From a virus (taxonomy: Duplodnaviria > Caudoviricetes): 64,000 bases of DNA. Both the position numbers and the translations under genes were made by a program. This document shows positions 2,365 to 54,385 of the stretch, piece after piece. Position 1 is the first letter of the stretch, and the number at the start of each line of letters is the position of its first letter. The notes under the pieces are model-generated. The model had not been told where the DNA came from. It searched no databases and saw only the letters and a list, made by a program, of their open reading frames with translations. The stretch covers positions 64,001-128,000 of IMG/VR virus record IMGVR_UViG_3300033070_001349; one strand, 5' to 3'.

Positions 2365-3726
2365 ATGGGCGCGTCGAAGATGAAGAAACACAAGGCGACG
2401 GAATCGCGTGCTACCCGCTCTCGATGTGCGCGCACTGCCGCATCGGATAAGATCGTGGTGCATGCAGGCGAACGTGACGAAGCGATGAATGGCGAGGCAC
2501 CGTTCACTTTCGGGGACCTGTTCTCCGGCGCGGGAGGCATGAGTTTCGGCTTCAAGAGCCACCCCGCGTTTCGCCCGGTCTTCGCGGTCGATGCACAGGT
2601 CGGCAAGCCGAGCAGCGGGATGGGGGCGCTGGAGTGCAACGCCTCGTACGAGGCCAACGTTGGCCTCCCGGCGCGCGAGGCCGACCTCTCGGTCTACTCG
2701 CCCCAGCAGCTCATGCATGAGACGGGGATCAAGCGCGGCGAGCTCGACGTGCTGATCTCCTGCGCACCCTGCACGGGGTTCAGCCGAATGAACAGCCAGA
2801 ACCACGAGCGGGACGACCGGCGTAACGGTCTGGTCGAGCGGACGGGCGAGTTCGTGTCCGCGCTTCGCCCGGCGATCCTCGTCATGGAGAACTCTCGCGA
2901 ACTCATCAGCGGCAACTTCTCGCACCACTACGAGAGCCTGCGCGCCTCGCTGGAGACGATGGGCTACTCCGTGTCCGGGGAGGTACACATGCTCACAGAC
3001 TTCGGCTTGCCACAGGTACGTGAACGCGCCCTAGTCATCGCGACGAGGGACAGCGGGCGCATCCATACCCTGCGGGACCTCTGGGACAAGATGATGCCGT
3101 CCGCGGAGAGTGTCACGGTGCGCCGCGCCATCTCGCACCTCCCGCCGGTGGCCGCAGGTGAAGCGCACTCCAGCGATCCCCTCCATCGCTCGCCGGGATT
3201 CTCCGACCCCGTAAGCCTGGAGCGCATGCACGCGATCCCGCACGACGGCGGGTCATGGCTCGACCTGCTCAAACGGCCCGGTGGTGGGCGCCTGCTCACA
3301 CCCTCGATGGTGAAGCTCGTCGCGGCGCGCGACTTCGGTTCGCACCCCGACAAGTACGGGCGGCTGTGGTGGGATCGGCCGTGCGTGACGATCAAGCGTG
3401 AGTGCGCCCATGTCGGCAACGGCCGGTACGCCCACCCTGAGCAGGATCGGCTCTGCACCGTCCGTGAACTCGCGCTGTTGAGCGGGTTCCCCGCCGGATA
3501 CAAACTTCTCGGCACGCTGTCGAACCGTTACCGTCACATCGGCGACGCGGTCCCGCCGCTCATCAGTTTCCAACTCGCGCACGCCTGCCACTGGATGCTG
3601 ACCGGGAAGCGGCCCCGTCGCGGCGAGTGGTGCCTGGCAGGTACATCGCTGCGTCCGGAGGACATCATCGAGCGTCGCGAGGCTCAGATGGCGATGCCGT
3701 GGCGGGAGTTGCGGTCGGCAGTCTAG
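2365..3726 (+). CDS. DNA (cytosine-5)-methyltransferase
   Basis: Motif I DLFSGAGG, IV PCTGFS, VI MENS, VIII QVRER, IX TVRELALLSGFP, X IGDAVPP. AGGAG RBS before ATG 2365 (alternative start 2485). Confidence 0.93.
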   Translation: MGASKMKKHKATESRATRSRCARTAASDKIVVHAGERDEAMNGEAPFTFGDLFSGAGGMSFGFKSHPAFRPVFAVDAQVGKPSSGMGALECNASYEANVGLPAREADLSVYSPQQLMHETGIKRGELDVLISCAPCTGFSRMNSQNHERDDRRNGLVERTGEFVSALRPAILVMENSRELISGNFSHHYESLRASLETMGYSVSGEVHMLTDFGLPQVRERALVIATRDSGRIHTLRDLWDKMMPSAESVTVRRAISHLPPVAAGEAHSSDPLHRSPGFSDPVSLERMHAIPHDGGSWLDLLKRPGGGRLLTPSMVKLVAARDFGSHPDKYGRLWWDRPCVTIKRECAHVGNGRYAHPEQDRLCTVRELALLSGFPAGYKLLGTLSNRYRHIGDAVPPLISFQLAHACHWMLTGKRPRRGEWCLAGTSLRPEDIIERREAQMAMPWRELRSAV

Positions 3727-4019
3727 GAATCGCGCAAGAACTCCCAGGTCGCGATCACGGCGCAGTGGCTCTTGAGGAGGTGCTTGATCTGGAGCTTACG
3801 CTCGCCACCGCCGTCGAAGTACAACTCAAAGATCCGCCTGTCGCGATCGTCATAGACCCGGCAGTAGCCTGGGATCGCGGTCCTTTGCGAACTTTCGTGC
3901 ATCATCGTGAACACGCCGTTATTAGCGCGCATCAAGAGCGCCTTCGGTATCGCAACGGGGCGGTGGGGAGCGAAGCTCAACGAGCGGATGCCAGAAATGG
4001 TGAAGGCCCGAGCTGACAC
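3723..4019 (-). pseudogene. C-terminal remnant of a SmaI-like type II restriction endonuclease (similarity limited to ~3723-3956)
   Basis: VAIPKALL...PGYCRVYD...FELYFDGGGERKLQIKHL..HC.V.ATWEF resembles the R.SmaI C-terminus as recalled from memory; N-terminal part absent; convergent with the MTase. Confidence 0.65.
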
Positions 4020-4250
4020 TCGAGCCTTCGTGCCGACAGCGGATGCCGACGGGAGGAGGGCGGCGGCGCATTCTCGCGCGTGTTTCCGGCGGGACAGGCT
4101 ACGTCACGGCCGGACCCAAGGGGACGGGCGGTGTCGGTGTGCCGCGATGTGACGGGCGCGGTGCGCGCGAAATCAAATCACGCCACCCCGCGCGAAGCCC
4201 GACGGCGGTGGTATGAGTTGGTTTCCGTGCCAACGACGTGGCGTGATTAG

Positions 4251-4270
4251 GGGTGAATCACTCCACTACC
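4251..4270 (-). repeat. Right terminal inverted repeat (GGTAGTGGAGTGATTCACCC on - strand)
   Basis: gggtgaatcactccactacc on + strand. Confidence 0.9.
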
Positions 4271-5212
4271 CCCCTCAGGCGCCACCTTCGCATCGAGGCC
4301 GCGAGCCGTCGGATGGAGCTCGCGAGCCGTCAGGTCCCCCCGGTGGCGCCGGACCCGAACCTCGCGGACCAGGACTTCTCGGTCCGCCCCGAGGCCTTCC
4401 GTGCGGCCCGTAGCGCCAACATCGGGGCCGTGGGCCGACACGCCCTCCTCGCCCTCCACCTCCGCCCGGACGGGCTCGCGATCCACGCCCAGGGGCCCCT
4501 GGCGAGCGCGGGGGCCCTTGTCCCCGTCGACAACGAAGAGGCGGCCCTCCGGGAGTCCATCCTGACCCGAGCGACGGCCGCCCACCCCGAGGCCCTCGAC
4601 GCCATCCTCCGGCTCGCGGGCGGATGGGACCTCCACTGGCGCGAGGCGGGCCGGGAGCTCCTCGTGTGGCGCTCGCCTCACCACGTCGTGATCCTCCGGC
4701 CGCAACCGCCTGTCGGCGGGGACCCGAACCTCTACGCGGACCTCGAAACCCCGGCCCCCATCGCGACAGTCTCGCGGTGGGACCTGATCGAGGCCATGCG
4801 GTACCTCCAGGCCGTCCGGGGGTCGACCGTGGCCGCCCTCGGGGTGAACCTGGGCCTCCTCGCCGAAGGGATCGAGCTCGCCCACGAGTCGACGGAGGGC
4901 TTCGCCACCGCCACGATTCCCGACCGGGACAGGGACCCCAAGGCCCCTGCCCGGCTCGTGGTGGGAACGGTCGGAGAGCCCCTCCTCGCGTTCGCCGAGG
5001 CGAGCGAGGCCCCGGCGCTCCAGCTCCTCCTCGCCCCCCGCAAGAGCACGGTTCCGAGCCCCGAGGCGCTACCCCGGTCGCCCTCCGCCGCGGGAGTCCT
5101 CCTCGTGAAGTCAATGGCCGCGGAGGGAGGGCCGCCGCGGTCGTCGCACCTCCGCGTCGCCTCCCTGTACTGGATCGAGGGGCCGAAAAGAAAAACGACA
5201 CTAGGCCCTTGA
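4271..5212 (+). pseudogene. Sliding-clamp (DnaN beta-clamp)-like protein, 5' end replaced by the cassette
   Basis: TVSRWDLIEAMRYL...GVNLGLLAEGIELAHESTEGFATATIP...VGEPLLAFAEA follows the beta-clamp domain III pattern; the ORF's annotated start (GTG 4253) lies inside the right TIR. Confidence 0.45.
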
Positions 5213-47887: not shown

Positions 47888-48589
47888 GTGCCGAAGAAGC
47901 CCCCCGTCCTGACCAAGCCCAAGACGCCCTCGAAGGGGGAGGTCCTCGCCCAGCTCAAGGCCCTTCCGTGCTTCGAGGAGGTCAAGGCCAAGATCCTAGA
48001 CGGGGTGCCGGTGCTTCAGGTGGCCCGGTGGATTCAGGACCAGGGCGAGTACGCCACCGCCTCGGAGGCCTCGCTCGCCAGGGCCCTCCACCGCTTCAAG
48101 GAGGAGCTACCTCCCGCGGCCTTCGTCCAGGCCGCCCTCCCGAAGGTCCACCAGGAAGCCCTCGCCGAGGTGAAGCAGGGCCTCGCCGAGGTGGACGAGT
48201 TGGCCCACCTCTACGCCTTGCAGAAGGGGCGGATCCACAAGCTCCTCAAGGTCGAGGAGACCATGCCCTCGATCCTCTTCCCGAACCTGTCCCAGGAGTT
48301 CCGCATCGCCGCCGAGCTCCTCCGCACCTCGGCGGAGCTCAAGGGCAAACTCGGGCTCCTCAAGCCGGGCCCGCGCGAGCCCTCCGGTGACCAGGGGGCG
48401 GGGGAGGAGGTCCCGATCGAGGACACGATCGAGGCCCTCGCCGCCGCCCACCCGACCGTCCCCGTCGCCGCCGTCTTCCGGGACCCGGAGAAGGTCCACC
48501 GCATCATCGGGTTGATGAAGACCGTGTCGACCCTCCAGGTGATGGTGGAGTCCGCCCCCGCCAAGCTCGGCACCGGGGGCGGCCCGTGA
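47888..48589 (+). CDS. Putative terminase small subunit
   Basis: Helical, HTH-like N-terminus, coupled directly upstream of TerL. Confidence 0.5.
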   Translation: MPKKPPVLTKPKTPSKGEVLAQLKALPCFEEVKAKILDGVPVLQVARWIQDQGEYATASEASLARALHRFKEELPPAAFVQAALPKVHQEALAEVKQGLAEVDELAHLYALQKGRIHKLLKVEETMPSILFPNLSQEFRIAAELLRTSAELKGKLGLLKPGPREPSGDQGAGEEVPIEDTIEALAAAHPTVPVAAVFRDPEKVHRIIGLMKTVSTLQVMVESAPAKLGTGGGP

Positions 48590-51500
48590 TCGACATTCGC
48601 GGGGGCCGCGCCCGCTCGATCCGAGAGCAGTCAGAGGTCGAAGCCGCCCTCCGCGAGGAGCTCAAGGGCCTCACCCCGGAGGAGCTCGCCGTCCTCGACC
48701 TCCTCTTGAAGGAGCAGGGCAAGGCGCCCCTCCCCGGGGTGGACCCGGGCCTCTCGGTCCTGCGGGCCCTCGAACGCACGGAGTGGAAGGTCCCGCCGGT
48801 CGACATGCGGACCTTCATCTACGACCCCTACTACCTCGGGGAGTCGTGCGGCGAGCTCTACCCCTCCCACTACGCGGACCTCTCTGAGCTCTTCGACCGC
48901 GGGGGCTACCACGAGGCCCTGTGGACGGGCGCGATCGGATGCCTGCGGGGAGACACCCCCGTCCACGACCCGGTCACGGGCATCACCGCCTCCGTGGAGG
49001 CCCGCTACCAGGAGGGCCGTCCCTTCCACGTCTGGTCCCGCTCGGACGCCGGGCCGGTGATCGCCGAGGCGTGGGCCCCCCTGCGCTACCCCGAGGCCCC
49101 GATGTTCCGGGTCACCCTCGACACCGGGGAGTCGTGCGTCGTCACCCCCGAGCATCGGTTCTGGGACGGTTTCAGGTGGGTGACCGCTTCCGAGGTCCGC
49201 GAACGCCTGCGAGGATCCGAGCTTGTCCTGCTTCCGTCCAGTTCGGACATCGTCCCTTCAACTCGTGCGCGAGGTGCTCTCCGTTCGACGCGAAGAGTTC
49301 CAGGTTCTCCGGGCGGTTGTCGGCCGGGTCTCCGTTCCGATGGTGGACGACCTCCTTCGGATCGAGAAGACGCCCGAGGGTGGTCTCCATCACGAGGCGA
49401 TGCTCTCGGACGTACCCGTGGCTATCCGCGTTCGGATGGTCAGGGCGAAGGAGGAGCACATAGCCGGACTTGTCGAGCATCCGCCCCCCCTTCCACGACC
49501 AGTTCCTCCCTTCTCTCGGGCCCCGACGCCGAGGCTCTTCTCCTAGCGCTCGAAGGGCGGCGGCCACCCGGTTCCGACTCGATCCGACGAGTGCGGCGAC
49601 TTCTGGCAGCGTGTGCCCTTCTCGGTACAGCTCTAGGGCTCGGGCCCGACGCTCATCCGTCCATCGCGCCCCAAGGTTGCAGGGCTTCTCGGGCGTCCAT
49701 CGGGCCGTCATGGGGTGAGCTCTACCCTGACGGGAGCGAATGGACAAGGACGGCGGCTCGTGTCGTGTCCGTGGAAACAGAGGCCCCCGAGCCCTACTTC
49801 GACTTCCACGTCCCGATCCACAACAACTACGCCGCCGCGGGCCTATGGCACCACAACACCGGCAAGAGCTTCTCCGCCTCCGTCGGCGTGTGCCGCGTCC
49901 TCTACGAAATCTCGTGCATGAGGGACCCGCACGGGGCCTTCCACATCGCCCGGCACTCGCCGATCCACCTCGTGTGCCTCTCCGTCACCGAGGACCTCGC
50001 GATCAAGGTCGCCTTCGACTACATCATCGAGAAGATCCAGCTCTCCCCCTACTTCCGCGAGAACTTCCCCTACCGCCCAGGGAAGAAGGAGTTTCTCTTC
50101 CCGAACAAGGTGTCCCTCGCGGCCCGCGCGACCACCGACACCTCGGCCCTCGGGCTCAACGTCATCTCGGTCTTCCTCGACGAGTCCGACTTCATCAAGA
50201 AGCCCGGCAAGGCGAAGCTCGCGGCCGGGGAGAAGGACACCGCCGAGCGCATCTACGCGAAGCTCAAGCGCCGCGTGAAGAGCCGCTTCCAGCGCAACGG
50301 CCGCCTCCCCGGGATGCTCTTCATCGTCTCGTCCAAGCGCCGCACCGACGACTTCTCCGCCCGGCACATCGAGAAGAGCCGCCACGACCCCACCGTCTTC
50401 GTCTCGGACAAGTCCCTGTGGGACGTGAAGCCCGAGTCCTACTCGAAGGAGCGCTTCCACGTCTTCGTCGGGAACGAGAGCCTCCCCTCGAAGATCCTAG
50501 AGCCCGCCGAGGTCGAGACCTACCGGGCCGTCGCAGAGGGCAAGGATACGTGCGTGGTCTTGGAGGTCCCCGAGGACTTCCGCCCTGACTTCGAGCGCGA
50601 GCTCGAAGAGGCGATCCGGGACATCGCCGGGGTCGCCACGGTCTCGATCGCCCCCTTCATTCAGCGCCGCGAGCGGATCCAGGCGGCGGCCGACTACGGC
50701 GACGCGAACGGCCTCCTCCACCCGTTCAGCACCGTCGAGTACGTTCCGGGGTCCGGCGCTGAGTTCCTGTGGGGCATCCTCGCCGAGACCTACTCGCACC
50801 CCCTCTCCGAGGGTGGCTACGAGACCAAGTGGCGCCCGCGGCTCAACCCGTGGGCCGCACGCCACGTCCACATCGACCCGTCGCTCACCGGGGACTCGAC
50901 CGGCCTCGCGATCGGCCACGTCGCCGGGTACAAGGAGGTCCTCCGCCGGGACTCCAACCACAGGATCTACGCCGAGAAGGCCCCGGTCATCGTCATCGAC
51001 CTGATCCTGCGGATCGTCCCGCCCCTAGGGGACGAGATCATCCTCGGGGACGTGCGGGCCCTCGTCTACCAGTGGGCCGAGCACGGGTTCCGCCTCGCGA
51101 AGATCACCATGGACTCCTTCCAGAGCGCGGACGGACTCCAGCAGATGGCCCAGAAGGGGTACAGCGCCGAGGTCTACTCGGTCGACCGGACCCCCACCGC
51201 CTACGAGATGCTCAAGACGGCCCTCTACGAGGGGCGCCTCATCTACTACGGCTACCCCAAGCTCCTCGAAGAGCTCAGGAAGCTCGAAAAGAACCACGTC
51301 ACGCACAAGGTCGACCACCCGCCCATGGGCTCCAAGGACTGCGCGGACGCCGTGGCGGCCCTGGTGGCGACCCTGTCGGGCGTGATCGCCGACGTGGCGA
51401 CAGACCCCCTACCCATGCTCCGCGGTCTCTCGTATTCTCCCGAGCTCGTGAGCCCCTCCGCCGCCTCCACCCCCGCCCAGGCCGCCCAGGTCGCCCACGC

Positions 51501-51594
51501 TCCAGTCTCCGACCGGGTGGCCTCGGCCCCTCTCGGGATGGTGGCCCCGGAGCCACATGACTCCAACCCCTACGGCGCGGAGTACGAGCCCTGA
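48586..51594 (+). CDS. terL: Terminase large subunit with intein
   Basis: After splicing Walker A GAIG|TGKS; VFLDE Walker B; HIDPS..GD.TG, DSFQS, HPPMGSKDCADA nuclease. Confidence 0.92.
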   Translation: MIDIRGGRARSIREQSEVEAALREELKGLTPEELAVLDLLLKEQGKAPLPGVDPGLSVLRALERTEWKVPPVDMRTFIYDPYYLGESCGELYPSHYADLSELFDRGGYHEALWTGAIGCLRGDTPVHDPVTGITASVEARYQEGRPFHVWSRSDAGPVIAEAWAPLRYPEAPMFRVTLDTGESCVVTPEHRFWDGFRWVTASEVRERLRGSELVLLPSSSDIVPSTRARGALRSTRRVPGSPGGCRPGLRSDGGRPPSDREDARGWSPSRGDALGRTRGYPRSDGQGEGGAHSRTCRASAPPSTTSSSLLSGPDAEALLLALEGRRPPGSDSIRRVRRLLAACALLGTALGLGPDAHPSIAPQGCRASRASIGPSWGELYPDGSEWTRTAARVVSVETEAPEPYFDFHVPIHNNYAAAGLWHHNTGKSFSASVGVCRVLYEISCMRDPHGAFHIARHSPIHLVCLSVTEDLAIKVAFDYIIEKIQLSPYFRENFPYRPGKKEFLFPNKVSLAARATTDTSALGLNVISVFLDESDFIKKPGKAKLAAGEKDTAERIYAKLKRRVKSRFQRNGRLPGMLFIVSSKRRTDDFSARHIEKSRHDPTVFVSDKSLWDVKPESYSKERFHVFVGNESLPSKILEPAEVETYRAVAEGKDTCVVLEVPEDFRPDFERELEEAIRDIAGVATVSIAPFIQRRERIQAAADYGDANGLLHPFSTVEYVPGSGAEFLWGILAETYSHPLSEGGYETKWRPRLNPWAARHVHIDPSLTGDSTGLAIGHVAGYKEVLRRDSNHRIYAEKAPVIVIDLILRIVPPLGDEIILGDVRALVYQWAEHGFRLAKITMDSFQSADGLQQMAQKGYSAEVYSVDRTPTAYEMLKTALYEGRLIYYGYPKLLEELRKLEKNHVTHKVDHPPMGSKDCADAVAALVATLSGVIADVATDPLPMLRGLSYSPELVSPSAASTPAQAAQVAHAPVSDRVASAPLGMVAPEPHDSNPYGAEYEP
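48940..49857 (+). mobile_element. Intein (306 aa) in TerL Walker A; central region is the antisense of an HNH gene
   Basis: IG|CLRGDT...VTPEHRFW...YFDFHVP..NNY....WHHN|T. Confidence 0.9.
49172..49711 (-). CDS. HNH homing endonuclease with N-terminal HTH, antisense inside the TerL intein
   Basis: LELYREG.TL.EVA..VG.S HTH; WKGG....GY....PDHP.A...GYVREHRLVME..LGR.L...EVVHHRNGD..DNRPENL. Confidence 0.9.
   Translation of the reverse strand: MTARWTPEKPCNLGARWTDERRARALELYREGHTLPEVAALVGSSRNRVAAALRALGEEPRRRGPREGRNWSWKGGRMLDKSGYVLLLRPDHPNADSHGYVREHRLVMETTLGRLLDPKEVVHHRNGDPADNRPENLELFASNGEHLAHELKGRCPNWTEAGQARILAGVRGPRKRSPT
51549..51564. promoter_or_regulatory. 16-bp quasi-palindrome copy 9 GGAGCCACATGACTCC
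   Basis: Dispersed motif at terL end. Confidence 0.7.
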
Positions 51595-51598
51595 CGCC

Positions 51599-54385
51599 AT
51601 GGGGATCCTCGACGGCCTCACCTCCGTAGCCCGCCGGGTCCGGCAGTGGGCCACCTCGACCAGGACCCGCCAAGCCCGCGAGCTTGCCGTGGGCGGCACT
51701 GGGGCCTCCGCCCTCGGCACCGGCTACGACCTCCTCTCGTCCTACGGGGCGGACAACCTCTCCTCGTACCTCCAGCTCGACCACGGCCTGTTGGAGCGGT
51801 ACAGCGACTATGAGGGGATGGACGAGTACCCCCTGGTCTCGTGTCTAGCGGGCGATTCGCTCGTTTTCACGCTCGAAGAGGGATGGGTTCCGATCCGCAC
51901 GCTGGCCGATCGCGGTCTGGAGTTCCACGTCCTCGCCTACGACAAGGCGACCCGGTCCCTCGTCCCGGCGAAGGCATCGGACGCTCGCTGCACGGGGCCA
52001 GAAGGGCACGCGAAGCCCATGGTTCGGGTCGTCACGGACGATGGCCGAACCATCACCTGTACGTCGGACCACCTCTTCCTCCTCAAGGACGAGGTCTGGC
52101 GTACCGCGGGGGACCTCCAACCCGGAGACCGGCTCATGCCCGGGGTTCTGCGCCAGAGGCACCTCGCCGTATGCTCGCAGACCTACTGGGAGGTGCACCA
52201 GCCCCAGTCGGACTCCACCTACCGGGCCTCGGATGGCAAGCGGTGGGTGTGGCTCCACCGGCTCGTGGCGGAGACGCTCCTCGGGGCGGTCCCTTCGGCG
52301 GGAGAGGTCGTCCACCACATCGACGAGAACACGCACAACAACGCCCCGAGCAACCTGAGCATCGAGGACAACGCCTCCCACGCCCGGATCCACCTCGCAG
52401 GCATCGACAACACGCGCTTCTTCCCGGAGTGGACGGCGGAGCGCCGCGCCCAGGCCGCCGAGCGGATGCGGGGCAACGACTTCGCCCTCGGCAAGAAGTT
52501 CTCGCCCGAGGTCAAGCAGCGGTTGTCGGAGGCCCGGAAGGGCCGCCCCAAGTCCGAAGCGCACCGTCGGGCCATCGGTCTCGCGCAGCCCTCTCGCGTC
52601 GCTCTGCCCCGCGAGGTGGTCGAGGGAGCCCTCCGGGAAGGGGGCACCGTAGCGCGTGCCGCTCGCCTTCTCGGGGTATCGTGGAGCACCATGAATCGTA
52701 GGGCCGAGGAGTTCGACCTCCTCTCGTCCGAGGCGAACCATCGGGTACTTCGGGTGGAGGTTCTCCCCTCGCGCGAGCCCGTCTACGACCTCACGGTGCC
52801 GGGCTTCCACAACTTCGTCTGCAACGGCGTGGTCGTCCACAACAGCGCCCTCGACGTGTACGCCGACGACGCGACGCAGACCGACCAGCAGACGGGGAAG
52901 GCGATCTGGGCCAAGTCCAAGGACCACCGCGTCGAGGAGATCCTGAACGACCTCCTCCACAAGGTGCTCCACATCGAGGACGAGCGCTGGGAGCTCGCCC
53001 GCACGCTCTGCAAGCACGGCAACGACTACGAGGAGCCCATCATCACGAACGAGGGCGTGGTGGCCCTCAACTTCCTCCCGGCCCCGACGATGCGCCGCCT
53101 CGAAGGCTCCAGGGGGGAGCTCTACGGCTACGTTCAGGACTTCCGGGGGAAGGTCGGGTACACGGTCCAAGAGTGGCAGCAGCTCATGGAGGCGCGCGAC
53201 ACCAAGCCGCGCCGCCCCCCTTTCGACCCAAGGGACCCGAACCTCGAACCTCCGGGGGAGGACGAGTACGTCGCGCCCTTCGAGGACTGGGAGGTGGTGC
53301 ACTTCCGGCTCCGGGGCAGGCACCGCCGGTCGGTCTACGGCCACGCGGTTCTGGAGTCGGCGCGGTTCATCTACCGGCGGCTCATGCTCTTGGAGGACGC
53401 GGCCCTCATCTTCCGCCTCCAGCGGGCCCCCGAGAAGCTCGCCTTCTACGTGGACGTGGGTCAGATGCCCTCCACCGAGGCTCTCGCGCACGTCCGCCGT
53501 GTGCGCAACGACCACAAGAAAAAGAAGTTCATCAACCCCACGACGGGCCAGCTCGCGACCCGGATAGAGGCCTTCTCCCCCGACGCCGACTACTGGGTCC
53601 CCTCCCGCGACGGCAAGGACTCCACCCGGATCGAGACGGTCTCCTCCCCCTCGTGGCAGCACATGGAGGACATCGAATACTTCCGCTCGATCCTCTTCGC
53701 CGCCATGAAGATCCCCAAGGCGTACCTCGGCGGTGACGAGGGCGTGGTGAACTCCGTCCTCTCCTCGCAGGACGTTCGCTTCGCCCGCACGATCCTCCGG
53801 GTGCAACAGGCCCTCAGGCAGGGCCTCCAGGCGATCTGCCGCATCCACCTCGCGGCCCTCGGGATCGACCCGAACCGGGTCGAGTTCGAGATCGAGATGA
53901 CCATTCCGAGCTCGATCTTCGAGCTCGCCCAGCTCGAAGCCCGGAACGCTCGCGCCGACCTCGCGGGCCGGATGCGCGAGTTCGTCGACATGCGCACGAT
54001 CCTTCAGGACGTGTTCGGGCTCTCGGACGAGGAGACCCTCCGGGTGGTGCAGGGCAAGCACCAGGACGCGGTCAGGGACGCCTTCACGCAGGCCAAGGTC
54101 CAATCCATCATGGGCGGTCCCGGCGGGCCCCGCGCTCCCGGGGGTGCCCCTGGCGGGCCCGAGGCCGCGCCCATCCCGCTCACGCGCCGCCGGGCCGGGC
54201 TCCCGAACCTCATGCCGAACGACCTGGAGAAGGAGCTCTACGCCTCCCCCACCTCCAGCCGCCGGTCCCGGCAGTTCGAGAAGAAGCTCGACGAGGTCCT
54301 CAAGGGCGACCAGCTCCTCGCGGCCCGGCTCCAAGAGGTGAAGGAGCTCGTTCAGATGGTCTCCCAGTTCCGCCGTGCCTCGTGA
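51599..54385 (+). CDS. Portal protein (T4 gp20-like) with HNH intein
   Basis: Y..MD.YP.VS|SALDVYADDAT; LLEDAALIFRLQRAPE..FYVDVG.MP; DYWVP.R.G..TRIET; DIEYF..LF.A.KIP; DVRFARTI.R.Q. Confidence 0.92.
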   Translation: MGILDGLTSVARRVRQWATSTRTRQARELAVGGTGASALGTGYDLLSSYGADNLSSYLQLDHGLLERYSDYEGMDEYPLVSCLAGDSLVFTLEEGWVPIRTLADRGLEFHVLAYDKATRSLVPAKASDARCTGPEGHAKPMVRVVTDDGRTITCTSDHLFLLKDEVWRTAGDLQPGDRLMPGVLRQRHLAVCSQTYWEVHQPQSDSTYRASDGKRWVWLHRLVAETLLGAVPSAGEVVHHIDENTHNNAPSNLSIEDNASHARIHLAGIDNTRFFPEWTAERRAQAAERMRGNDFALGKKFSPEVKQRLSEARKGRPKSEAHRRAIGLAQPSRVALPREVVEGALREGGTVARAARLLGVSWSTMNRRAEEFDLLSSEANHRVLRVEVLPSREPVYDLTVPGFHNFVCNGVVVHNSALDVYADDATQTDQQTGKAIWAKSKDHRVEEILNDLLHKVLHIEDERWELARTLCKHGNDYEEPIITNEGVVALNFLPAPTMRRLEGSRGELYGYVQDFRGKVGYTVQEWQQLMEARDTKPRRPPFDPRDPNLEPPGEDEYVAPFEDWEVVHFRLRGRHRRSVYGHAVLESARFIYRRLMLLEDAALIFRLQRAPEKLAFYVDVGQMPSTEALAHVRRVRNDHKKKKFINPTTGQLATRIEAFSPDADYWVPSRDGKDSTRIETVSSPSWQHMEDIEYFRSILFAAMKIPKAYLGGDEGVVNSVLSSQDVRFARTILRVQQALRQGLQAICRIHLAALGIDPNRVEFEIEMTIPSSIFELAQLEARNARADLAGRMREFVDMRTILQDVFGLSDEETLRVVQGKHQDAVRDAFTQAKVQSIMGGPGGPRAPGGAPGGPEAAPIPLTRRRAGLPNLMPNDLEKELYASPTSSRRSRQFEKKLDEVLKGDQLLAARLQEVKELVQMVSQFRRAS
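51842..52843 (+). mobile_element. Intein (334 aa) with in-frame HNH, NUMOD3-like repeats and HTH in the portal
   Basis: VS|CLAGDS...CTSDH...WLHRLVA...VVHHIDENTHNN..SNL...VYDLTV..FHNF...VVHN|S. Confidence 0.92.

Follow-up and report, generated by a model that had tools for sequence, protein, structure and literature searches.

Inteins that carry an endonuclease gene on their opposite strand have been described before. According to a recent preprint, antisense LAGLIDADG open reading frames (ORFs) are found in the inteins of Synechocystis DnaX and of a Chloroflexus SpoVR-like protein (Gorbalenya, 1998; Gogarten, 2002, as cited in bioRxiv 10.1101/2025.01.02.630785) and in the minor-capsid inteins of actinophages, and actinophage inteins also contain antisense Vsr-like (EDxHD) and out-of-frame EndoVII-like genes (Gosselin, Arsenault and Gogarten, 2025, bioRxiv 10.1101/2025.01.02.630785). 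The same text names four host protein types for such non-canonical inteins, the large terminase TerL among them, calls these layouts rare and describes HNH endonucleases in frame only. Two further arrangements are related. In fractured genes, a free-standing endonuclease gene lies between the halves of a split intein (Dassa et al., 2009, PMC2677866). In ShiLan, an out-of-frame HNH gene is hidden in an insertion of a phage DNA methylase that has no intein (Arsenault et al., 2025, PMC11855218). In this study, we analyzed the terminase locus of an uncultured phage of the Caudoviricetes, contained in a 64,000-nucleotide stretch (hereafter, the window) that corresponds to bases 64001–128000 of the 148,482-bp IMG/VR virus record IMGVR_UViG_3300033070_001349. 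Our results make it likely that TerL of this phage is encoded as a precursor with a cis-splicing intein in its Walker A motif and that the endonuclease slot of this intein is filled by an antisense gene for a protein with a helix-turn-helix (HTH) and an HNH domain.

The TerL precursor is encoded on the plus strand by a single ORF of 1002 amino acid residues (48586..51594), which was identified from the ORF list, by tblastn and by alignment of the exteins. This ORF reads through the intein and, different from a fractured gene or a split intein, is not broken into two parts with separate translation. Over its C-terminal 500–550 residues (383/425–930), TerL was 33–37% identical to proteins of phages of Vibrio and Rhodobacter that are annotated as large terminases, with tblastn E-values down to 1e-76. 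Alignment to intein-less relatives placed the end of the N-extein (48586..48939) at WTGAIG, the first half of the Walker A motif, and the C-extein (49858..51594), which comprises the rest of TerL, begins with TGKS, the second half. The 306 residues between them (48940..49857; TerL residues 119–424) are the intein, and the junctions read GAIG|C...HN|TGKS. In the intein-less TerL homologs of three IMG/VR records (L009–L011), the corresponding sequence, TG(A/S)IG-YGKTF, is uninterrupted, both exteins can be aligned with those of the window and the C-exteins are 46–54% identical. Given that these homologs are continuous across the site, the insert splits the Walker A motif. The intein-less relatives also retain the target ATCGG|TACGGCAAGACC, and the DNA that flanks the insertion on the C-extein side, ACC GGC AAG ACC, is kept.

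Judged by its motifs and its predicted structure, the insert is a canonical class-1 cis-splicing intein, of which splicing itself is a prediction. It begins with CLRGDT, contains block B (VVTPEHRFW, with T69 and H72) and block F (YFDFHVPIHNNY) and ends with WHHN, the last two residues of which are H305 and N306, followed by Thr at the +1 position. Among 45 aligned homologous inteins, no variation was seen at C1, H72 of block B, D288 of block F and N306, and H305 was nearly invariant. Where the C-terminal junction of a nested locus was recognized, the +1 residue was almost always Thr, Ser or Cys. An AlphaFold2 model built on the same alignment had pLDDT values of 96–98 for residues 1–92, which are beta-rich, and of 91–98 for residues 270–306. 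The former residues constitute the N-terminal Hint lobe with blocks A and B (48940..49215), which Foldseek superposed on the Mtu RecA mini-intein 5i0a with an E-value of 2.7e-6 and an rmsd of 1.5 Å over 88 columns. The C-terminal Hint lobe with blocks F and G (YFDFHV...NNY...WHHN; 49750..49857) was delimited by the model and by profile matches. The best Foldseek matches of the intein model were all mini-inteins, 5i0a, 2in8, 4o1r and 1mi8 (Mtu RecA, Npu/Ssp DnaB and DnaE), with E-values of 2.7e-6 to 1e-4 and a Foldseek probability of 1.0.

Between the two lobes lies a linker (about residues 93–270; 49216..49749). Its approximately 175 residues had pLDDT values of 37–53 and no predicted secondary structure, and a Pfam profile search of the linker matched no family. 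Arg, Ser, Gly, Pro and Ala account for 63% of intein residues 93–270, compared to 37% in the exteins. By composition, pLDDT, dN/dS and stop count, the linker is the shadow reading of the gene on the other strand. In the phase concerned, codon position 1 of the antisense frame lies opposite position 1 of the HNH codons, and HNH position 3 faces position 2 of the intein frame, which accounts for the Arg/Ser/Gly/Pro-rich shadow sequence. An earlier sequence-only reading of this DNA had described the Hint blocks as normal and the middle segment as resembling no domain; both descriptions agree with these results.

The gene in the endonuclease slot (49172..49711, minus strand) encodes 179 amino acid residues plus a stop codon. 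Its open frame spans 49172..49747, the ATG is at 49711 and the stop codon is at 49172–49174. As the sequence-only reading had proposed, it is an intact HTH plus HNH gene, and both it and the intein frame are free of stops. The HTH DNA-binding domain (about residues 18–55; 49547..49660) matched Pfam HTH_23 with an E-value of 6e-6 and 26.4 bits (cut-off 24.6), and the region that includes the catalytic core VVHHRNGDPADNRPENLELFASNGEHLAHE (49292..49402) matched HNH_3 with an E-value of 1e-10 and 41.6 bits (cut-off 24.8). A total of 551 homologs were found at E ≤ 1e-3, the best of which was 73% identical, and H123, H124, N132, N136, N143 and H146 were invariant in the HNH alignment A1. The structural model had a pLDDT of 84.6. 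VIA-align superposed residues 10–58 on the DNA-binding domain of GcrA (5yiu; Z 7.4) and residues 74–153 on I-HmuI (1u3e; Z 6.5, rmsd 3.3 Å, 73 residues); the latter match is middling, with a Foldseek E-value of 0.22. Foldseek found no match in the PDB for the whole model at E ≤ 0.001 because the protein consists of two domains, and a profile search of the PDB sequences with alignment A1 returned HTH-containing chains only. The modeled structure is consistent with an I-HmuI-like HNH enzyme of the beta-beta-alpha-metal fold, for which DNA cleavage is predicted.

Long shadow ORFs are common in DNA with a GC content of 66–70%; for instance, one of 733 residues lies opposite TerL in L003, a relative of the window. 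A census of homologs, codon resampling and dN/dS estimates were therefore all carried out. For the census, loci with HNH relatives were drawn from IMG/VR, JGI metagenomes, public assemblies and GTDB genomes, about 190 in all. A total of 98 of the 126 distinct HNH sequences were antisense inside a long ORF with Hint N- and C-terminal lobes on either side. All 98 nested homologs, whose GC contents ranged from 0.35 to 0.69, had no stop in the antisense phase used in the window, and the two remaining antisense phases had a mean of 5.6 stops and 5–15 stops in DNA of 35–50% GC. When the synonymous codons of each HNH gene were resampled with the codon usage of its own locus, a mean of 4.5 stops was expected for the 98 nested homologs (range 1.8–9.4), and the median probability of an open frame was 0.0025 (maximum 0.14). 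With the HNH gene of the window, 2.25 stops were expected and none was found (P = 0.022). In 22 free-standing relatives, 4.6 stops were observed and 5.2 were expected. Given that the frame is open in every nested homolog and that resampling predicts stops, the choice of codons in the HNH gene keeps the intein frame open.

For the window and eight relatives, dN/dS was 0.15–0.33 in the HNH frame and 1.2–2.9 in the intein frame. Purifying selection acts on the HNH protein, and the linker is selected solely against stops. Stop avoidance and dN/dS in homologs, which the sequence-only reading had put forward as a check, came out on the side of its interpretation, which is supported in part. Moreover, both Hint halves were encoded on the strand opposite to HNH in 127 of 137 open loci, and the C-terminal Hint lobe was matched by profile in 129 of the 137.

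Across the family, the insertion site is shared. Both junctions were recognized in 84 distinct loci, about 80 of which followed the pattern Gxx(G)|C[LIV]xGxT...HN|[STC]GK[ST], so the insert is always in Walker A. The variants were AN in place of HN, P-loops that read GLGK, GVGK or SNRAGK, and one automatic call (L030) that was apparently mis-made. At L129, which shares a contig region with L178, the insert ends with ...WTHHN|GGKS and has Gly instead of Ser, Thr or Cys at the +1 position; from this sequence, either canonical splicing should be impossible there or the junction is shifted. The exteins included several TerL families (Terminase_6N, Terminase_3 and the type found in the window), SbcC/Rad50-like ATPases and AAA+ proteins as well as a clamp-loader subunit, an AAA_34/Strawberry-notch-like helicase, a TraG-like ATPase, an AAA_25 protein and SNF2 helicases.

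Both the Hint domain and the HNH protein of the window were closest to those of two TerL relatives, L093 and L003. Next closest were those of four SbcC-like ATPases (L094, L007, L100 and L013), with identities of 47–57% for Hint and 51–60% for HNH, although the exteins were only about 16% identical. Other TerL families were more distant from the window, with identities of 29–41% for Hint and 43–48% for HNH. Given that Hint and HNH are similar where the exteins are unrelated, the intein has moved jointly with its antisense gene between unrelated P-loop genes. Co-inheritance was judged by this window-centered comparison; the pairwise HNH, Hint and extein identities over 73 loci were weakly correlated (Spearman coefficients of about 0.25–0.28) and were not used for this purpose. 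Other traits of a homing element were also found: the distribution is sporadic, related genes have the target site without the insert, and Hint plus HNH units occur in unrelated P-loop genes. According to the sequence-only reading, the layout may be an intermediate in the acquisition of endonucleases by mini-inteins. This idea fits poorly with 98 distinct sequences, HNH identities to the window that reach down to about 41–47%, GC contents of 35–69% and many different exteins. The antisense state looks like a long-lived and stable arrangement, not a transient one.

The arrangement is also present in cultured phages. In Pectobacterium phage Ymer (OP748252.2; L173, record positions 2451–4715), a 754-residue 'hypothetical protein' encoded next to and upstream of the portal gene is a TerL with the intein. 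Its junctions read AGFG|CVHPHT...HIHHN|TGKS, and its antisense HTH plus HNH ORF is intact. The same antisense layout was found in all eight genomes of the Ymer genus, Ymer and seven relatives, which are cultured, plaque-forming phages. As these phages are viable with an essential gene split in its P-loop, they provide indirect evidence, by analogy, for the predicted removal of the insert by splicing. About 97 Klebsiella and Escherichia phages matched the Ymer gene more distantly. All of the listed matches fell into two parts that left out the middle of the query, and several of them are annotated as large terminase. The paper describing the Ymer genus (PMC11445585) does not mention inteins. 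In addition, the nested arrangement was found in bacterial assemblies of Planctomycetota, Acidobacteriota, Cyanobacteria, Firmicutes, bacteria of the Candidate Phyla Radiation and Proteobacteria (metagenome-assembled genomes L175–L185) and on a 4.5-Mb contig of the isolate Polaromonas sp. CG9_12 (L187/L188). Gene callers split or shorten TerL at these loci: at L003, L006 and L007, they called the antisense HNH gene and a truncated host gene, and the N-terminal Hint lobe was left uncalled together with the N-extein.

Compared with the antisense LAGLIDADG inteins, the locus of the window has the same overall plan. In both cases, a contiguous and presumably splicing intein has a separate, opposite-strand endonuclease gene in its slot, the intein frame is open and the unit is apparently mobile as one. 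Different from those inteins, however, the nuclease is of the HTH plus HNH_3 type (I-HmuI-like), the site is the Walker A motif of P-loop NTPases and the group comprises 98 distinct sequences instead of a handful. The antisense Vsr-like inteins share the architecture, the location in phage genes and the proposed origin, a free-standing endonuclease gene that invaded an intein, but their nuclease belongs to a different superfamily. With its HNH_3 nuclease, the TerL intein of the window is outside both published antisense groups. The sequence-only reading knew of no such case in an intein; on this point it was mistaken, since the LAGLIDADG (Gorbalenya, 1998; Gogarten, 2002) and Vsr-like (Gosselin et al., 2025) examples had been published. 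A quantitative two-frame test of stop avoidance or dN/dS was not found in the accessible text of Gosselin et al. (2025). No report of an antisense HNH gene in an intein was found in the literature searched, and a paper on crAss-like phages mentions inteins but not an antisense gene.

Similar to fractured genes, an independent endonuclease gene lies between the N- and C-terminal parts of the intein, and the model of Dassa et al. (2009, PMC2677866) predicts intermediates like the present layout. Here, however, the host frame is continuous, the intein is a cis intein and the HNH gene is antisense, whereas fractured genes have a GIY-YIG or Vsr-like endonuclease in a separate intergenic ORF. Two deviating loci are of interest in this regard. 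At L016 (IMGVR_UViG_3300049489_001113), both Hint halves are in one frame, opposite to the HNH strand, and four stops are found in the overlap with HNH; at L055/L170, the N-terminal Hint lobe is followed by stops. Judged by their sequences, L016 and L055 are probably split-intein (fractured-gene) or decaying derivatives, which are rare. As in ShiLan, the insertion conceals an HNH gene in an alternative reading, and the host gene reads through it without stops. ShiLan, however, has no splicing domain and, according to its abstract, uses an alternative frame, whereas in the window the HNH gene is antisense and the insert is predicted to be removed by the intein. A more distantly related HNH gene is antisense in an open DNA-methyltransferase ORF (DPPYG/DPPAG) at L068 and L089, where a Hint domain was not detectable; by analogy, these two loci would be antisense counterparts of the ShiLan insertion.

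An intein with an in-frame endonuclease is found in the same phage. The T4-like portal ORF (51557–54385, plus strand) adjoins TerL and contains a second intein (51842–52843) that matched Pfam Intein_splicing with 67 bits. Its in-frame endonuclease has HNH_3 followed by HTH, the reverse of the domain order in the antisense protein, with which it shares 35% identity over 83 residues. The portal and TerL inteins of the window are a natural pair of in-frame and antisense arrangements. They are alike in consisting of Hint, HNH_3 and HTH and in being mobile elements in a packaging or structural gene, and they differ in that the nuclease of the portal intein is part of the intein polypeptide. Canonical in-frame HNH inteins were reportedly described by Dalgaard et al. 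in 1997. Both types also occur within a single gene: TerL of L003 (L003:1158-5126, minus strand) is 70% identical to that of the window in the first 200 residues of the C-extein, and it contains both the same Walker A intein with an antisense HNH gene and a second intein, DHPPGG|C...HN|SKD, with an in-frame HNH domain. The site of this second intein is empty in the window (DHPPMGSKD).

The HNH gene would be transcribed and translated from its own antisense message. Direct reading of the sequence revealed a weak, putative promoter-like element (49719..49747, minus strand) that consists of TTGTCC at 49747–49742, a 17-nt spacer and TAGAGC at 49724–49719, 7 nt before the ATG. In its close high-GC relatives L093 and L007, the elements TAGGCT and TAAGGT are found 7–8 nt before the HNH ATG, and their position is compatible with leaderless starts. 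Many homologs of lower GC content have a clear AGGAG Shine-Dalgarno sequence 6–10 nt before the HNH ATG; this observation is based on clear ATG cases only, as automatic start assignment was unreliable for distant homologs. In L014, L020, L026, L027, L046 and their relatives, a conserved inverted repeat, GGTAATATACACATGTTCATTACC, is located about 15–40 nt upstream of the HNH ATG, right before AGGAG and antisense in the intein coding sequence. It could be a regulatory hairpin or an HNH promoter. A consensus scan of 48500–50300 identified no intrinsic terminator. That HNH is expressed early, before the late TerL, is pure speculation.

Several observations weigh against the interpretation favored here. 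No Shine-Dalgarno sequence was found upstream of the HNH ATG in the window, and a scan with the sigma-70 consensus reported no site before this ATG, TTGTCC-N17-TAGAGC included. The promoter-like element claimed in the sequence-only reading is present exactly as it was described there, and the scan did not recognize it as a promoter. The match of the intein to Pfam Intein_splicing (PF14890) had a score of 23.1 bits (E-value 6.8e-5) and was below the gathering cut-off of 35.8 bits, which is attributed to the approximately 175-residue non-homologous insert that splits the match; this cut-off is a threshold for detection and does not define the class. A profile scan of both strands, as had been suggested beforehand, thus confirmed HNH_3 and HTH_23 on the minus strand and left the splicing domain on the plus strand below the cut-off. 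The long disordered insert might also slow splicing. Support for a quick tree of the HNH proteins was poor, and numbers of origins or escapes were not derived from it. Finally, the probability of an open frame is only 0.022 in the window, and the argument for selection therefore rests on the family.

The absence of a Shine-Dalgarno sequence and the weakness of the element before the ATG would also be expected if the HNH ORF of this phage were an unexpressed relic and the insert a vertically inherited mini-intein whose linker is junk. In the course of the homing cycle, it is common for inteins to persist longer than their endonucleases. We nevertheless regard a relic as unlikely, because the ORF is of full length with all of its catalytic residues intact, its dN/dS relative to homologs is 0.15–0.27 and Hint and HNH have moved as one between unrelated genes. 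In addition, a dead ORF should gather stops, as the intein frame constrains the HNH frame weakly. That the open TerL frame is a chance product of high-GC DNA and that the halves of TerL are joined in trans by a split intein is much less probable still. Shadow ORFs as long as the 733 residues in L003 are common in DNA of 66–70% GC, the probability for the window by itself (0.022) is small but not negligible, and probable split or decayed forms do exist, namely L016 with its four stops between the Hint halves and L055. The same phase, however, is open in 98 of 98 distinct nested homologs, including those in DNA of 35–50% GC, and it is not open in the free-standing relatives.

In the linker, the frame is kept open and the sequences of close relatives are alignable, as would be the case if the Arg/Ser/Gly/Pro-rich segment were a functional domain and the HNH reading secondary. 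Alignability, however, follows from the conserved HNH gene on the other strand. The linker has a dN/dS of 1.2–2.9, no Pfam match and low pLDDT (37–53) without secondary structure, whereas the HNH frame has domains above the Pfam cut-offs and a confidently predicted fold, all of which makes a functional linker domain highly improbable. Least credible of all is an assembly artifact in which the middle of an ordinary intein with an in-frame HNH domain was inverted, even though the source is a metagenome assembly. A 394-nt contig from a different study is identical to the window over 49566–49959, which includes the 5′ end of HNH, the end of the intein and part of the C-extein, and the same layout is present in more than 100 independent contigs and in the finished genomes of eight cultured phages. 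Moreover, a flipped in-frame cassette is not expected to remain open on the other strand, and the antisense protein differs from the in-frame portal endonuclease both in domain order (HTH then HNH, as opposed to HNH then HTH) and in sequence (35% identity over 83 residues). The assembly inversion that the sequence-only reading had listed as a possible refutation was thus not found. A chance shadow ORF, an assembly inversion and a functional linker domain were rejected on the basis of family-wide openness, of independent assemblies, and of dN/dS together with disorder, respectively.

The interpretation of a cis-splicing TerL intein with an antisense HTH plus HNH gene suggests how the element may work. 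TerL of this phage, whose genome is about 148 kb, would be made as a precursor interrupted in Walker A (GAIG|TGKS), with a complete I-HmuI-like HTH plus HNH gene on the opposite strand in the slot between blocks B and F. Ribosomes translating TerL would read the shadow of this gene as a disordered linker of about 175 residues, the sole requirement for which would be freedom from stops. The two Hint lobes would then associate, splice out the whole insert and restore the P-loop. Translated from a separate antisense message, the HNH protein would presumably nick or cut intein-less Walker A alleles in co-infecting phages, and repair of the cut allele would copy the whole unit of intein plus HNH into it. 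Cleavage of the empty sites by HNH is a prediction, as is splicing.

A wider proposal, which taken as a whole is possible rather than probable, is that the antisense layout did not arise as a passing accident but has been selected as a stable design in a large, old selfish family that targets Walker A. Location on the opposite strand may uncouple the timing or amount of HNH from a late, highly expressed host gene, and convergent transcription or pairing of sense and antisense RNA may make the expression of HNH and TerL mutually exclusive. The conserved P-loop target, in turn, may allow the unit to hop among genes for TerL, SbcC-like, AAA+, clamp-loader, SNF2 and TraG-like proteins.

Inteins with antisense endonucleases have already been published; the HNH type, the abundance of the arrangement and the quantitative evidence for selection appear to be new. 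The window contains one member of a large, unannotated family that is relevant to specialists in inteins as well as in overlapping genes. For the former, the results bear on the acquisition and retention of homing endonucleases by inteins: a free-standing HNH gene can inhabit an intein over long evolutionary times without joining the intein polypeptide, at the only cost that one antisense frame is kept free of stops. For the latter, the family is a clean natural case of antisense dual coding with measurable selection, in which stops are avoided through synonymous codon choice in 98 independent sequences. In practical terms, mis-annotation of TerL and of other ATPases is systematic where this element is present, and even in the cultured phage Ymer the protein is a 'hypothetical protein'. 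With cultured hosts at hand, expression from the antisense strand, splicing across a disordered linker of about 175 residues and P-loop homing are directly testable.

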